34,884 nt of DNA from a virus: positions 1 through 34,884 of the IMG/VR virus record IMGVR_UViG_3300045988_174060. One strand, given 5' to 3'. This document shows, piece after piece, positions 2,796 to 7,710 of the stretch (position 1 is its first letter; every line of letters starts with the position of its first letter). The position numbers and the translations under genes are program-made. The notes beneath the pieces were generated by a model that saw nothing but the letters and a program-made list of their open reading frames with translations, searched no databases and was not told the origin of the DNA.

Positions 2796-3071
2796 ATGGA
2801 AGCAAAAAACAGGATACTGCGCAGCATCAGCCCGACGGCCACGCTGCGCTCAATGAAGCCGGGCAGCGGCATTGAAATACCTTGCAGTGCAATGAGTTTT
2901 TCGGCGCTGATAATGGCAAAAGCCAGGTTGAACCGCCAGAGCGGGCGCAACGAGTGGCAAGTGAGAGTGAAGAAGGACGCCGCACGCGGCAAGTGCTACC
3001 TGGTGGAGCGCGCGCAGGGCGAAGTGACAAACAACAACAAACAAAAGGAGGACAGCAACCATGATGACTGA
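2796..3071 (+). CDS. Hypothetical protein
   Basis: In-frame ATG at 2796 (MEAKNRIL...), just after the stop of the upstream gene. The longer ORF from 2700 would overlap that gene. Overlaps the next gene by 11 nt. Confidence 0.45.
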   Translation: MEAKNRILRSISPTATLRSMKPGSGIEIPCSAMSFSALIMAKARLNRQSGRNEWQVRVKKDAARGKCYLVERAQGEVTNNNKQKEDSNHDD

Positions 3072-3261
3072 AACCGAACCACAGGTGGCCGACGCTGGGC
3101 GTTACCCCATGGGACGCGCGGCAGAGCTGCTTGGTGTGTCGCGCTCCACCATCAAGCGGTGGGTGACGAGCGGGCGCATAACCTGCGGCTGGAGCAAGGT
3201 GAACTGCAGGAAGTTCATAACCGGTGCCGAGATTAAGCGTGTGTGGCGCGAGTACTATTAA
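3061..3261 (+). CDS. Excisionase-family / MerR-like HTH DNA-binding protein
   Basis: 66 aa. The segment GRAAELLGVSRSTIKRWVTSGRI has the HTH_17/Xis-like pattern. Confidence 0.65.
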   Translation: MMTETEPQVADAGRYPMGRAAELLGVSRSTIKRWVTSGRITCGWSKVNCRKFITGAEIKRVWREYY

Positions 3262-3826: not shown

Positions 3827-4129
3827 ATGACTATGAGCAGATGTAATATGACTTTGGTAAAGTACAAAATGTCCTCGACCGATGGCTTTGCCGAGGTGGA
3901 GGTGTCGTTCAGCCCCAACCTGAAGGAGTGGACGCTGAAGGCCAACTTTGTGCCGCTTGAGCAGCGTGAGTTCGTTGACGCGCTCGACCGCGCCCTGCCC
4001 TTCGAGGTAATAGTAAAGGACGGCCGCGGCGGCTGCATCATTCAAGGCCCCATGCCCGAGGGTATGGGCCGGGCCACGGTACTGAAACGCATGGTGGACG
4101 TGTTTGCCGACACGATAGTTGACGGGTGA
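3827..4129 (+). CDS. Hypothetical protein
   Basis: 100-aa ORF. The start is uncertain because there are in-frame ATGs at 3827, 3833, 3848 and 3869. Confidence 0.5.
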   Translation: MTMSRCNMTLVKYKMSSTDGFAEVEVSFSPNLKEWTLKANFVPLEQREFVDALDRALPFEVIVKDGRGGCIIQGPMPEGMGRATVLKRMVDVFADTIVDG

Positions 4130-4190
4130 ATGGTTAACCCGTCACCCCGCACACACACGTATATATAGATAGGAGTTAGAAATCACACAC

Positions 4191-4260
4191 GATGGCCGGG
4201 GGGCTTGACGTGTATATTCTTCATCACTTTGTTTTGGTTTTTGCTGTACCCCCGGCCATC
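4191..4260 (+). ncRNA. 12-bp stem hairpin opening the structured non-coding region
   Basis: GATGGCCGGGGG (4191-4202) pairs perfectly with CCCCCGGCCATC (4249-4260). Confidence 0.35.
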
Positions 4261-4302
4261 ATCAGGCTGCCGTAGTCCGCGACGGATAGTGGCAGCCACC
4301 CC

Positions 4303-4453
4303 GCAGGCGATAGGCCGCTAAACGGATAGGCGGCAAACGGATAGTACGCCGGGGGTGCACCATCAGCACAGACGCTGAATAGCCCCGCTCGATGGTGCCC
4401 CCGGTATTCGCGACGAAGTAGGACATTAACGGGTTCGACTCCCGCCGCCTGCG
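4303..4453 (+). ncRNA. tRNA-like structured RNA candidate 1: closed acceptor stem, T-arm and a long internal hairpin
   Basis: 5' GCAGGCG (4303-4309) pairs with 3' CGCCTGC (4446-4452). The T-arm is ACGGG-TTCGACT-CCCGC. The internal hairpin is CCGGGGGTGCACCATC (4349-4364) with GATGGTGCCCCCGG (4391-4404). At 151 nt it is not a canonical cloverleaf. Confidence 0.35.
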
Positions 4454-4518
4454 CTACATCCATTCTCATAATGTTAAGGCGTGTCATGGTTCGTGACGGA
4501 TAGTGCGCGCCGCCCTTT

Positions 4519-4626
4519 GCAGGCGATAGGCCGCTAAACGGATAGGCGGCATGTGTAAATGTTAGATGCACTGCCAGTGTGTTGTAAAGATAGGAACATT
4601 AGCGGGTTCGACTCCCGCCGCCTGCA
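4519..4626 (+). ncRNA. tRNA-like structured RNA candidate 2
   Basis: Its first 32 nt (GCAGGCGATAGGCCGCTAAACGGATAGGCGGC) are identical to those of candidate 1. The T-arm GCGGG-TTCGACT-CCCGC is perfect. Acceptor 3' strand CGCCTGC with A at 4626. An inner stem pairs AATGTT with AACATT. 108 nt. Confidence 0.4.
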
Positions 4627-4640
4627 CGAAGCTTGGTTTT

Positions 4641-4797
4641 AAGTTGAAAAGTTTAGGAGTTGAAAAGCCAAGAAGTCGCTTTAAGAGTTGAAAAGTTAAG
4701 AGGTTTCCTCTGCTTGCCCAACTCATAAAACCGACCGCTTAACTTTTCAACTTTTCAACTTGAAAAACTCCAAACTCCTACTCTAACTCCAAAAGAC
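4641..4797 (+). repeat. Composite intergenic palindromic element, copy a (TTGCCC subfamily)
   Basis: Left arms are of the GTTGAAAAGTT/TAGGAGTT type. Core TCCTCTGCTTGCCCAAC at 4706-4722. The right arm CTTAACTTTTCAACTTTTCAAC runs up to the ATG at 4801. Confidence 0.85.
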
Positions 4798-4800
4798 CCT

Positions 4801-7710
4801 ATGATAAGAATAGAAAACCTATATCGCGCCACCAACGAGGGGCTCGATATCATACTGCACTACTACCCGCAGGCACGCGAGGTGGTGGGCTCCAAAAACA
4901 AGTTCAGGGTGCGCCCCGCCGACAAAACGCCCTCGGCCTGCCTCTACCTGTGCCACACACAGGGGGGCGAGGGTGTGTGGAAGGTGACCGACTTCGGCGA
5001 TGAGGGCCACGCGCAAAGCCCGCTCGACATCTGCATGAGGGAGGAGGGCATCGAACGCCCCTACGAGGCAGTGCTCAAGCTGGCCGCCATGTTCGACGTG
5101 CGTGACGAGCTGAACCGCTCCATCAACAAGCCCGACATCAAGCACCGCCCCGCCACGGCCGACGAGAAGGACGGCACACGCATCTTTGCCCTGCTTGAGC
5201 GCATACCCGAGAGCCACCTCAAAGTGCTTGGCCCGAGGGTGACGCACGCCGACACCGATGCGCTGCACTGGTACGAGGCCGAGTATGTGGGCTATGTCAA
5301 GAACCGCGAGGTGACGCTCAAGTACTCCACCGAGCACTACCCCATCTTCATGCGCGAGTGTGTGGTGGAGGAGGGCGGCGGCGAAAAGGCCGAAGTAAAG
5401 TTTTACAAAATATATGAGCCATTGAACCCCGACAAGGGTTTTCGCTTCAGCTATCACCCCGCAGGGGGCAAGCCCAAGGCCTACATCAACGGCCTTCACG
5501 AGCTGAAAGCCCTGTGGCGCAAGCTGAACGCCGACGAGGAAGCGGCCTTTTACCGCGACCCCGCCAACGAGGGCAAGCCCTACCGGGAGCAAAAGCTGAA
5601 GGAGGCCTTCATTTGTTCGGGCGAGCGCGACTCGCTGTGCTGCCACTCCATGGGCTACAGCCCGCTGTGGTTCAACTCCGAAACGTACCGCCTGAGCGAG
5701 GCAGAGTACAAGGAGGTGATGAAGTATGTGGAGGTGCTCTACAACATTCCCGACCTCGACAGCACAGGCGTGCGCAAGGGGCGCGAGCTTGCGCTGCGCT
5801 TCATAGACATACACACCATGTGGCTGCCGCAGAGCCTCACGGGCTACCGCGACAACCGCGGCCGCCCGCGCAAGGACCTGCGCGACTGGCAGGAGCTGCG
5901 CGACAGGCGGAGCGACTTTGCGGGCCTGATGGCACTGGCCATGCCTGCCAAGTTCTGGACGGAGCGCACCAACCGCAAAACGGGGGCCGTGACGTACGAC
6001 ATCGACACGGAGTGCCTGTACAACTTCCTCCGGCTGAACGGCTTTTACACCCTGCACGACGACAACATAAAGGAGGCGCGCTACATACACGTGCAAGGCA
6101 ACATTGTGCGCGAGGTGAAGGCCAAGGACCTGCGCCGCTTCATAAGCGAGTGGGCCGAGGAGCGCTGCCTGCCGCGCCCCGTGCGCAACCTCATACACAA
6201 CTCGCCAAGGCTGAGCGACTCAGCCCTCGACAACATGCGCGAGGTGACGCTCGACTTTACCAACTACACGCCCACCACGCAGCTCTTTTTCTTCCCGGGC
6301 AAAACGATTGAGGCCACCCCCACGGGCCTTGTGGAGCACTCAGGCGGGGAAGGTCTTGACCGCTATGTGTGGCAGGAGAATGTGCTGGACCACCGCGTCA
6401 CGCTCATGCCCCCCATGTTTGAGGTGGAGCGCAGCGTCACGCCCACGGGCGAGGCGCGCTTCGGGGTGAAGGTGAAGGACGCCGAGAGCAGCCCCCTGTT
6501 TGGCTACGTAATCAACACGAGCCGCGTGCACTGGCGCAAGGAGCTGGAGTACAACTTTGCCGAGCGCGATGCCTCGGAGGCCGAAGCCTACCACCGCGCC
6601 CACAAGTTCTGCATCGACGGCGAGGGCCTCACGCCCGACGAGCGGCACGAGCAGGAGCAGAACCTTGTCAGCAAACTCTTCACCATAGGCTACATGCTGC
6701 ACCACTACAAAAGCCCCTCGCGGGCGTGGGCGCCAATGGCCATGGACAACAAGATTGGCGAGGACGGCGAGTGCAACGGCCGCAGCGGCAAGTCGTTCCT
6801 GTTCAAGGCCCTCAGCCTCTTTATGAAAACGGTGAAGCTGAGCGGCCGCAACGCCAAGTTGATGGACAACCCGCACGTGTTCGACCAAGTGACGCAGCAC
6901 ACCGACTTTGTGCTGGTTGACGACTGCGACCGCCACCTTGACACGGGGGCATTTTACGACCTCATAACCTCGGACATGACCGTCAACCCCAAGAACAACC
7001 AGAGCTACACCATACCCTTTGAGCAAAGCCCGAAGTTTGGCTTTACCACCAACTATGTGCCGCGCGACTTCAGCCCCAGCACCGAGGCGCGCCTGCTTTA
7101 CCTTGTGTTCAGCGACTACTACCACCAGCGCACCGAGGGCAACGACTACCTTGAGAGCCGCAGCATACGCGACGACTTCGGGCGCGACCTCATAAGCTCC
7201 TCGTACAAGGAGGAGGATTGGAACGCGGACATAAACTTCTTTATGCAGTGCTGCCAGTTCTACCTGTCGATGTGCCAGGAGAGCGTCAAGCCCATGCCGC
7301 CCATGGGCAACATATTAAAGCGCAAGTTCAAGGCCGACATGGGCACCAACTTTGAGGAATGGGCCAACGTGTACTTTGCCGAGGAGGGCGACAACCTCGA
7401 CACCTTCATCGTTCGCCGCGAGGCCTACGACGCCTTTATAGACGATGCCAAGGTGAACAAGAATTTTTACACCATGAACAAGTTCACCAAGGCCTTGCGC
7501 TCCTTTGCCGCCCTCTGCCCCTACGTGTACGACTACAACCCCGCCGACTTGCTCAACTCGCAGGGCCGCATCTCGCGCCGCATCGACGGCAAGAGCGAGG
7601 ACATGATATATCTGCGCTCCACCAAGAGCCAGGCCAACCGCGAAAGCCTCGACACGGGGGCGCACCTCGACCCCGGGGCGGGATTTGTGCCGGACGAGAG
7701 CGAAGGCTAA
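4801..7710 (+). CDS. DNA primase / SF3 (P4-alpha or D5-like) helicase
   Basis: 969 aa. Central Toprim-like segment FICSGERDSLCCHSMGYSPLWFNSE. Walker A NGRSGKSF and Walker B FVLVDDCD. Confidence 0.8.
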   Translation: MIRIENLYRATNEGLDIILHYYPQAREVVGSKNKFRVRPADKTPSACLYLCHTQGGEGVWKVTDFGDEGHAQSPLDICMREEGIERPYEAVLKLAAMFDVRDELNRSINKPDIKHRPATADEKDGTRIFALLERIPESHLKVLGPRVTHADTDALHWYEAEYVGYVKNREVTLKYSTEHYPIFMRECVVEEGGGEKAEVKFYKIYEPLNPDKGFRFSYHPAGGKPKAYINGLHELKALWRKLNADEEAAFYRDPANEGKPYREQKLKEAFICSGERDSLCCHSMGYSPLWFNSETYRLSEAEYKEVMKYVEVLYNIPDLDSTGVRKGRELALRFIDIHTMWLPQSLTGYRDNRGRPRKDLRDWQELRDRRSDFAGLMALAMPAKFWTERTNRKTGAVTYDIDTECLYNFLRLNGFYTLHDDNIKEARYIHVQGNIVREVKAKDLRRFISEWAEERCLPRPVRNLIHNSPRLSDSALDNMREVTLDFTNYTPTTQLFFFPGKTIEATPTGLVEHSGGEGLDRYVWQENVLDHRVTLMPPMFEVERSVTPTGEARFGVKVKDAESSPLFGYVINTSRVHWRKELEYNFAERDASEAEAYHRAHKFCIDGEGLTPDERHEQEQNLVSKLFTIGYMLHHYKSPSRAWAPMAMDNKIGEDGECNGRSGKSFLFKALSLFMKTVKLSGRNAKLMDNPHVFDQVTQHTDFVLVDDCDRHLDTGAFYDLITSDMTVNPKNNQSYTIPFEQSPKFGFTTNYVPRDFSPSTEARLLYLVFSDYYHQRTEGNDYLESRSIRDDFGRDLISSSYKEEDWNADINFFMQCCQFYLSMCQESVKPMPPMGNILKRKFKADMGTNFEEWANVYFAEEGDNLDTFIVRREAYDAFIDDAKVNKNFYTMNKFTKALRSFAALCPYVYDYNPADLLNSQGRISRRIDGKSEDMIYLRSTKSQANRESLDTGAHLDPGAGFVPDESEG

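Follow-up and report, generated by a model that had tools for sequence, protein, structure and literature searches.

Plant mitochondrial t-elements, mascRNA at the 3' end of MALAT1 and the tRNAs that punctuate mitochondrial transcripts are embedded tRNA-like folds that recruit RNase P or RNase Z, which gives the flanking RNAs their ends. MALAT1 carries a protective structure just upstream of the RNase P cut. Small RNAs that are also excised by RNase P, from the early/immunity operon transcripts of temperate phages, are the C4 immunity RNAs of P1 and P7 and the CI immunity RNA of P4. CI is located upstream of the alpha primase-helicase gene, and C4 and CI act antisense to repeats in their own transcripts. 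In this study, two tRNA-like modules were characterized in the virus record IMGVR_UViG_3300045988_174060 of IMG/VR, of which positions 1 to 34,884 (34,884 nucleotides [nt], hereafter the window) were analyzed. They are members of a structured, phage-borne RNA family that Rfam 15 does not contain and that had not been catalogued before. The structure of this family is well supported; its function is deduced, and by analogy the family seems to belong with tRNA mimics and tRNA-like processing elements. Its closest functional analogues would be mascRNA/MALAT1, the t-elements of plant mitochondria and, in P1 and P4, the C4/CI RNAs that RNase P processes.

In the window, two tandem units, each made up of a leader hairpin and the tRNA-like RNA behind it, span positions 4265–4625 between early genes. 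The features of the two units are listed below, where CM stands for covariance model, MFE for minimum free energy and ACGGATAG is an octamer that occurs in five copies.

4265–4297, + strand: leader hairpin 1, GGCUGCCG...UGGCAGCC, ending 5 nt before module 1
4303–4452, + strand: module 1, 150 nt (CM R1 83.2 bits, E = 4e-21; MFE fold; covariation)
4303–4309, + strand: acceptor 5' strand of module 1
4310–4313, + strand: AUAG of module 1
4314–4334, + strand: D arm of module 1, its loop with ACGGATAG copy 2
4335–4422, + strand: insert of module 1, with ACGGATAG copy 3 at 4337 and a long bulged hairpin at 4349–4404
4423–4428, + strand: ACAUUA of module 1
4429–4445, + strand: T arm of module 1
4446–4452, + strand: acceptor 3' strand of module 1
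4453–4454, + strand: positions 73 and 74 of module 1, G and C
4478–4511, + strand: leader hairpin 2, GGCGUG...CGCGCC, ending 7 nt before module 2, with ACGGATAG copy 4 at 4496
4519–4625, + strand: module 2, 107 nt (CM R1 90 bits, E = 4e-23; MFE fold; covariation)
4519–4525, + strand: acceptor 5' strand of module 2
4526–4529, + strand: AUAG of module 2
4530–4550, + strand: D arm of module 2, its loop with ACGGATAG copy 5
4551–4595, + strand: insert of module 2
4596–4601, + strand: ACAUUA of module 2
4602–4618, + strand: T arm of module 2
4619–4625, + strand: acceptor 3' strand of module 2

The 5' block of the modules, GCAGGCGATAGGCCGCTAAACGGATAGGCGGC(A), is 33 nt long and was the same letter for letter in 4303–4335 and 4519–4551. 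Their 30-nt 3' blocks, ACATTA(A/G)CGGGTTCGACTCCCGCCGCCTGC, were 97% identical (4423–4452 versus 4596–4625), and the acceptor strands GCAGGCG and CGCCTGC were fully complementary. The inserts are 88 nt in module 1 and 45 nt in module 2. In the insert of module 1, positions 4349–4364 pair with 4391–4404, forming a 14-bp hairpin with a 2-nt bulge. The sequence features described in an earlier reading of the DNA made without database searches (the sequence-only reading) were all confirmed, including the identical 5' block, the near-identical 3' block, the closed acceptor stem and the 14-bp hairpin. Both modules that it had delimited are real, but they end at 4452 and 4625 and are 150 and 107 nt long rather than 151 and 108 nt, positions 4453 and 4626 being the discriminator positions beyond the module ends. 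That reading had not singled out the two leader hairpins, one per module, which hold two of the five ACGGATAG copies. In leader hairpin 1, copy 1 (4282) is paired with GUCCG, and the stem is preserved in relatives via G-U/G-C and C-G/U.G changes. Leader hairpin 2 is paralogous to leader hairpin 1 but diverged, and the changes in its stem compensate each other.

The exact 5' block was matched in four IMG/VR contigs with one module each, three of them similar to module 1 and one similar to module 2. Thus, the window combines both types. A scan with the degenerate pattern ATAG-N5-TAAACGGATAR identified 72 viral loci. In about 30 of these, N5 was complementary to the 5 nt right after the motif, a GTTCGAnYC T-loop was found 18–174 nt further on, and the 7 nt before ATAG, which comprised a dozen unrelated sequences, paired 7/7 with the 7 nt that follow the T stem. 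CM R1, which was built after the first alignment, added further modules including tandem partners. The family was found in about 50 viral and metagenome-assembled genome (MAG) contigs, with 47 distinct modules and 28 different acceptor sequences. The modules were 70 to 226 nt long, and their median length was near 85 nt. When one genome per species was scanned, only 8 matches were obtained, in Bacteroidales/Prevotella MAGs or in short contigs binned elsewhere; the RNA is therefore phage-borne and not a housekeeping RNA of the host. According to MAG labels and integrase type, many Bacteroidales phages appear to carry the family.

No match was found when the whole window was scanned with Rfam 15 at gathering score. 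A permissive Rfam scan of 4100–4850 gave only a sub-threshold tmRNA match and spurious miRNA matches on an AT-rich palindrome, and that of five loci with short members (E ≤ 1) gave no match, including to tRNA and tmRNA. Likewise, blastn of 4150–4800 against GenBank phages returned no match. The family was not described in the full-text literature searched. An IMG/VR survey of structured RNAs mentions tRNA-like candidates among thousands of unnamed ones, which may include this family (PMC10690425).

The 5' half of the consensus consists of a 7-bp acceptor, AUAG, a 6-bp D stem with the loop AAACGGAUA and a variable insert, which ranged from 9 to about 170 nt across the family. The 3' half consists of (RGGR)CAUUA, a 5-bp T stem with the loop UUCGACU and the acceptor 3' strand that directly abuts the T stem. 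In alignment A1, which was made with MAFFT from 22 distinct modules, 95.5% of the cells in the three helices were paired, compared to 35–51% with slid partners. Moreover, 16 of the 18 pairs were changed on both sides, and the covariation score was 0.84 versus 0.19 for shuffles. The second alignment, which was CM-based and included 35 modules, was 96.8% paired with a covariation score of 0.88 (≤ 0.19 in controls). The viral matches had been selected without regard to the acceptor and T stems, so the covariation signal of these stems is independent of ascertainment. The sequence-only reading had proposed to look for covariation in precisely these two stems, and the compensatory changes in 16 of the 18 pairs of A1 provide it. 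One of its two interpretations, a novel tRNA-like or tRNA-mimic RNA, is strongly supported by acceptor, D and T helices that covary among 35–47 homologues on unrelated phage backbones, by strand specificity and by the lack of an Rfam match at gathering score.

The D stem is closed by a conserved U.G pair in 33 of the 35 modules, and more G.U pairs are scattered in the stems. The tRNA motifs, which are the T-loop UUCGACU and the D-loop AAACGGAUA, are readable only on the + strand. Given that U.G and G.U pairs would be A.C on the opposite strand and that the motifs read one way, the selected object is a single-stranded RNA of the + strand. Judged from the sequence, transcription of this RNA follows the orientation of the early genes. 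The members of 70–76 nt (L098, L104, L092, L093, and L155) possess just 9–15 unpaired nt between D and T arms. Thus, the anticodon arm is dispensable and the insert is free to vary. As the anticodon arm is replaced by a stub and a variable insert, the RNA cannot decode. Each RNA retains two parts of a tRNA, namely the coaxial stack of acceptor and T arm (7+5 bp) and the elbow formed by D-loop and T-loop. By analogy, the AUAG linker and the 6-bp D helix may fit the L-shape as a D helix that is extended by two pairs and capped.

Similar to canonical tRNAs and phage tRNA clusters, the family has a 7-bp acceptor on a 5-bp T stem, the T54-Psi55-C56-R57-A58 pattern and tandem arrays. It also shares a D-loop with equivalents of A14, R15, G18G19, and A21 with canonical tRNAs and an N73-C74-A75 trailer with the tRNAs of the same contigs. 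All parts of a tRNA top half were found, including the 7-bp acceptor, the 5-bp T stem and the elbow, with GUUCGA and AAACGGAUA invariant. Different from canonical tRNAs, however, the family lacks an anticodon stem-loop, and its 6-bp D stem follows the 4-nt AUAG. A canonical cloverleaf (RF00005) with a 7-nt anticodon loop was not found, the linker of the minimal members being 9–15 nt. The family escapes the Rfam tRNA model and, in general, ARAGORN, which made no call on 22 family loci. Infernal/Rfam and ARAGORN had both been suggested as checks in the sequence-only reading. In the window, the former gave nothing at gathering score and the latter one aberrant call, tRNA-Gly(gcc) at 4535–4625, in which the real acceptor stem is unused.

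The resemblance to tmRNA that had been noticed earlier is real, but it is confined to the acceptor and T arm, where the tmRNA model (RF00023) matched with 19.9 bits against a gathering score of 47. Similar to the tRNA-like domain of tmRNA, the modules have an acceptor and a T arm, between which other RNA takes the place of the interior, as well as a GGAC-like sequence before the T arm. Different from tmRNA, they possess a true D stem, which tmRNA lacks, and are 70–226 nt rather than about 350 nt long. As the sequence-only reading had stated for the modules, pair 3:70 is not G-U and there is no tag reading frame. The G3:U70 identity pair of tmRNA was found in 0 of 35 modules, in which this pair is C-G, A-U or G-C throughout, and neither a tag reading frame nor pseudoknots were found, with inserts down to 9 nt.

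The perfect acceptor and T arm, the weak tmRNA match, the tRNA-Gly call on module 2 and the tyrosine integrase gene of the phage (245–1537, with a SAM_5 domain typical of Bacteroidota) speak for a functional decoding tRNA, a tmRNA-like rescue RNA, or a decayed tRNA or attachment-site (att) remnant that integration left behind. In addition to the lack of an anticodon arm in minimal members, of Rfam matches, of G3:U70, of a tag frame and of pseudoknots, G was found at position −1 in only 2 of 47 modules and the discriminator was variable. Both halves of the modules covary, hence they are not a 3'-half att copy. From the end of the integrase gene to the modules downstream, the distance is about 2.8 kb, and the modules are not at a prophage end. 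The presence of the family in transposable phages, which use no att sites, is further evidence against att remnants. Overall, we regard a tRNA, a tmRNA-like RNA or a tRNA/att remnant as highly improbable.

Among non-decoding RNAs, YrlA Y RNAs are arranged in the order of T arm, acceptor-like stem-loop and D arm, their ends form the Ro60-binding stem, and their gene is beside that of Ro60 (PMC4201824). YrlA of M. smegmatis is cut by RNase P, and CA is added after an encoded C to give CCA (PMC4201824). Similar to YrlA/Yrn1, some of which are phage-encoded (Chen et al., 2014; PMC4201824), the modules are non-decoding tRNA mimics with look-alikes of D and T arms. Different from YrlA, their order is the native one of acceptor, D arm, insert, T arm and acceptor, they end at the acceptor and no link to Ro60 was seen. 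The native arm order excludes membership in YrlA. Moreover, there was no Rfam Y-RNA match for the family, and the part of the open reading frames (ORFs) that was scanned, comprising 20 ORFs of the window and neighbors at other loci, contained no TROVE (Ro60) match. For C4, no match was found with its model at E ≤ 10 in 4100–4850. Different from the family, C4 and CI RNAs lack a T-loop/D-loop elbow, and the family lacks antisense targets in the window. Complements to the inserts in the window were at most 9 nt long, which is the chance level, with the exception of the arms of an upstream hairpin, H1, versus the insert hairpin of module 1. The family is therefore not a member of the tRNA, tmRNA, YrlA or C4/CI RNA classes.

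The sequence-only reading had offered as its second interpretation an iteron-containing replication origin, analogous to P4 ori/crr, for the gene downstream, which it had labeled a primase-helicase. The five copies of ACGGATAG that it had listed were confirmed at 4282, 4322, 4337, 4496, and 4538. They are all on the + strand and within 264 nt, with none elsewhere in 34.9 kb. From shuffles, 0.35 ± 0.64 copies would be expected, and five were reached in 0 of 100. In the two modules, the D-loops consist of the copies at 4322 and 4538, which carry the G18G19 equivalents. Those at 4282 and 4496 are in the leader hairpins, which in the window resemble a D arm and in which CGGAU is paired with GUCCG or GUUCG. 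The leader hairpins of other lineages lack ACGGATAG. The copy at 4337 is a local duplication 3' of the D arm of module 1 and is degenerate (AAGAAGATAG) in the close relatives L002 and L003. The copies outside the D-loops are thus peculiar to the lineage of the window. The repeat therefore arises from the architecture of the RNA and from local duplication and does not represent iterons.

The gene downstream and the phage around it have the following features.

245–1537: tyrosine integrase
2354–2767: cI-like helix-turn-helix (HTH) protein
3061–3261: excisionase/MerR-like ORF
4801–7710, + strand: 969-aa ORF, putative Toprim primase + P-loop (D5/VirE-like) helicase

The phage is a tailed temperate phage with terminase, head protease and tape measure genes, and the genes flanking the modules are all on the + strand. 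The 969-aa protein had no match in Pfam (also at E ≤ 10), NCBIfam or the PDB sequences, and in PHROGs it belongs to phrog_28855, which is annotated as "unknown function." By eye, Toprim-like SGERD and DLD motifs were recognized, together with Walker A (GRSGKS) and Walker B (VLVDD). Its full-length homolog in Polaribacter phage Leef_1, which is 36% identical, is annotated as "DNA primase/TOPRIM," and more than 100 homologs were found in IMG/VR. The protein looks like a member of an uncatalogued primase-helicase family of Bacteroidota phages, judging from these motifs. The primase-helicase label is plausible on account of the motifs and the Leef_1 annotation but finds no match in Pfam or NCBIfam.

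To test the linkage between this gene and the modules, 80 loci with homologs of the 969-aa protein were fetched. A module was found ≤ 1 kb upstream in only about 9 of the 80, namely the group of the window, L008/L009, and L082. For instance, the cultured Bacteroides phage BT-TP2, whose protein is 64.5% identical, has no module anywhere in its 45 kb. Conversely, the 969-aa primase-helicase gene is downstream of modules in three lineages only. The genes downstream in other lineages include those for a Mu-like rve transposase with a MuB-like AAA protein after it, RecT and YqaJ, DUF4494, DNA methyltransferases and small membrane proteins. The varied neighbors and the rare linkage to the 969-aa gene are evidence against an origin that is tied to the primase-helicase. 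That five same-strand copies lie directly upstream of a putative primase-helicase gene, which might bind them as iterons, remains the one feature in favor of such an origin. Duplex sites linked to a cognate initiator were not found: across the family the octamer is kept only as an RNA D-loop, in Mu-like transposable phages and beside RecT/YqaJ or methylase genes as well, and about 70 of the 80 homologs of the 969-aa gene have no module. The compensatory and G.U changes also mean that selection acts on a single-strand fold and not on a duplex site. In addition, the palindrome between the modules and the 969-aa gene is a better origin or operator candidate. The origin was thus not upheld, and we consider the chance that the copies function as one to be very slight.

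All-against-all clustering of the ORFs within about 4 kb of the modules did not reveal any universal partner, although cI-like repressors recur upstream. That the neighboring genes differ among lineages indicates host factors instead of a dedicated protein partner. The modules were always co-oriented with the downstream genes. The next ORF on the same strand begins 16–50 nt past the module in 12 of 22 lineages, and the distances between the end of the upstream ORF and the module ranged from 38 to 170 nt. The Bacteroides TAnnTTTG motif (−7) was absent within 300 nt upstream in 21 of the 22 lineages.

The flanks of the modules are also conserved. In about 20 of 24 lineages, a stable hairpin ends 2–7 nt before position +1, although the flanking sequences are unrelated. 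The leader hairpins had a mean MFE of −14.4 kcal/mol, and control windows had one of −8.0 kcal/mol (Mann-Whitney p = 8.5e-8). Where arrays are spaced, every unit, including the second ones, has its own hairpin. Position 74 was C in 45 of 47 modules, position 75 was A in 25 of 47, and position −1 was U or C in 36 of 47. The genuine tRNA genes on the contigs that bear the family have an N73-C-A trailer in 6 of 6 cases and no encoded CCA. On L100, about 600 nt separate a module from the genuine tRNA genes that follow it on its strand.

In bacteria, the 12-bp stack, the elbow and C74 are read by RNase P, by the nucleases that mature the 3' ends of tRNAs and by the CCA-adding enzyme. The features of substrates for RNase P and 3' processing are present in the family, including the 12-bp acceptor/T stack with the elbow, a pyrimidine-rich position −1 and C74 for the P15 loop. 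The part of tRNA that these enzymes ignore is the part that is absent here, and the features that they read are kept, so excision by the host processing machinery is proposed. By this analogy, the units are probably cutting signals for host tRNA-processing enzymes and would be excised from the early transcript, which we favor with some reservation. The units would be co-transcribed with the early operon on the + strand, and the tRNA-processing machinery of the host would cut at +1 and probably also after position 73 or 74. The polycistronic early mRNA would thereby be punctuated: a protective hairpin 2–7 nt from the cut would be left at the end of the upstream fragment, and the downstream message would start at or just after the tRNA-like fold or stay capped by it. 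A compact, stable tRNA-like RNA would be released, which could have a role in trans, for instance as a decoy for a factor that binds the top of tRNA. Similar to t-elements, mascRNA and mitochondrial tRNA punctuation, this arrangement involves a tRNA-like fold in a longer transcript, and the protective structure of MALAT1 is analogous to the leader hairpin. Different from the phage family, those systems are eukaryotic or organellar and share no sequence relation with it, and the processing step of the family is putative.

Several points weigh against excision as the function of the units. Cleavage by RNase P and a 3' nuclease is deduced purely from resemblance, and the leader hairpin might serve otherwise, such as a protein-binding site or insulation for folding. 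The invariance of AUAG, the D-loop and CAUUA is partly imposed by the search patterns, which required some of these positions. The family is small and mostly from the metagenome project 3300045988, and its assignment to Bacteroidales hosts rests on MAG labels and integrase type. Finally, tandem arrays with differing acceptor stems exceed the need for one cut site. Arrays of 2–3 units with differing acceptor stems, which are comparable to phage tRNA clusters, were found in at least 8 lineages, and their recurrence hints that the released RNA itself matters.

It is possible, if doubtful, that the purpose is the released RNA, which in trans would be a decoy or sponge and capture a host factor that recognizes the acceptor end and the elbow of tRNA but not the anticodon, or would be a natural "tRNA scaffold" that stabilizes the insert. 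This explanation overlaps with excision by host enzymes rather than excluding it. The candidate targets of a decoy include an abortive-infection toxin that modifies or cuts the 3' ends of tRNAs, RNase P and the CCA-adding enzyme. The arrays would provide dosage or product diversity, and the conservation of the D-loop, T-loop, AUAG, and CAUUA exceeds that of a bare minihelix. Moreover, the modules are in the early region, where counter-defense genes often sit, and the stems of insert hairpins are kept through compensatory changes (e.g., L103 versus L107). However, no partner or target was identified, involvement of any defense system is not known, and the inserts show no extended antisense complementarity to the rest of the window. 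The scaffold version is not general, as many members are essentially without an insert. We offer only tentatively the combined proposal of an RNase P-excised, anticodon-less "tRNA top-half" RNA that would function in temperate Bacteroidales phages as a trans decoy, for counter-defense or takeover, and as an insert-carrying scaffold.

In lambdoid phages, nut- and put-type elements sit between the immunity/small early genes and the replication/recombination genes. The modules occupy a similar position, are near the downstream start codon and are accompanied by a hairpin. They might therefore be an uncleaved cis-regulatory RNA of the early operon, either a processive antitermination element, such as nut of lambda and put of HK022, or a protein-binding tRNA mimic that controls translation of the next gene. 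The exact consensus of the tRNA T- and D-loops, the 7+5-bp stack and the C74/N-C-A trailer known from real tRNA genes, however, indicate the tRNA-processing machinery. With unrelated genes downstream, there is no common regulated target, and we know of no antitermination RNA with this fold. Such a cis-regulatory role is considered unlikely.

The results add to phage biology a strongly covarying RNA family that the standard tRNA and Rfam tools miss, and they show that the "top half plus elbow" of tRNA persists in nature without the decoding part. They bear on how mobile elements exploit RNase P, the CCA-adding enzyme and other readers of the elbow. If processing were confirmed, the family would be a bacterial/phage counterpart of mascRNA or of t-element punctuation, and a hairpin with a unit of about 70 nt that tolerates inserts would be a compact part for RNA processing or stabilization in the engineering of Bacteroides. 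If the released RNA were a decoy, it would represent a new type of RNA-based anti-host function.

The tightest arrays were those of L108 (3331–3667, which is the same as 1150–1486 of L119), with three modules 11 nt apart, and L085 (2391–2715), with two modules 5 nt apart, differing acceptor stems and an insert of 170 nt in its module 1. Diverged tRNA-like elements of 15–20 bits were found just upstream of strong modules in L008 (2474–2546), L103 (721–784), and L107 (12863–12962). They have a good T arm and acceptor and a different D region (e.g., ACGGGAAUAG), which suggests that the family may be broader than searches anchored in the D-loop reveal. The short contigs L154, L156, L157, and L159 were binned in Akkermansia, Oscillibacter and Saccharibacteria MAGs; they are probably mis-binned phage contigs and do not indicate true hosts. 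Genuine tRNA genes (Gln, Ser, and Pro) were located on L100 (11613–12170, − strand) as well as on L105, L117, L124, and L125, and one Ser-type tRNA has an unusual anticodon, ACT.

In the window, two further structures flank the units, both outside the family-wide unit.

4191–4260, + strand: hairpin H1, perfect 12-bp stem GATGGCCGGGGG/CCCCCGGCCATC (4191–4202 with 4249–4260), 46-nt T-rich loop
4636–4775: AT-rich imperfect palindrome, AGTTGAAAAG words, three direct and then inverted CTTTTCAAC

A small hairpin or palindrome without a U-tract is found further upstream at 4120–4147 (TGACGGGTGAA…TTAACCCGTCA), where it overlaps the stop codon of the ORF at 3827–4129. The perfect stem of H1, which the sequence-only reading had placed at the same positions, is GC-rich, and its loop includes CTTGACGTGTATATTCTTCATCACTTTGTTTTGGTTTTTG. 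H1 is kept in the closest relatives. Its arms resemble the insert hairpin of module 1, with 4242–4256 being 87% complementary to 4348–4362, and alternative pairing between the two hairpins is possible. The AT-rich palindrome, which gave the spurious plant-miRNA matches in Rfam, is locally the stronger candidate for an operator, an origin or a structure in the 5'-UTR (untranslated region). Its words are AGTTGAAAAG and GGAGTT, with further sites at 4170–4182 and 4782–4790. In relatives, the word alters on both arms together (TTTATAAG with CTTATAAAC).

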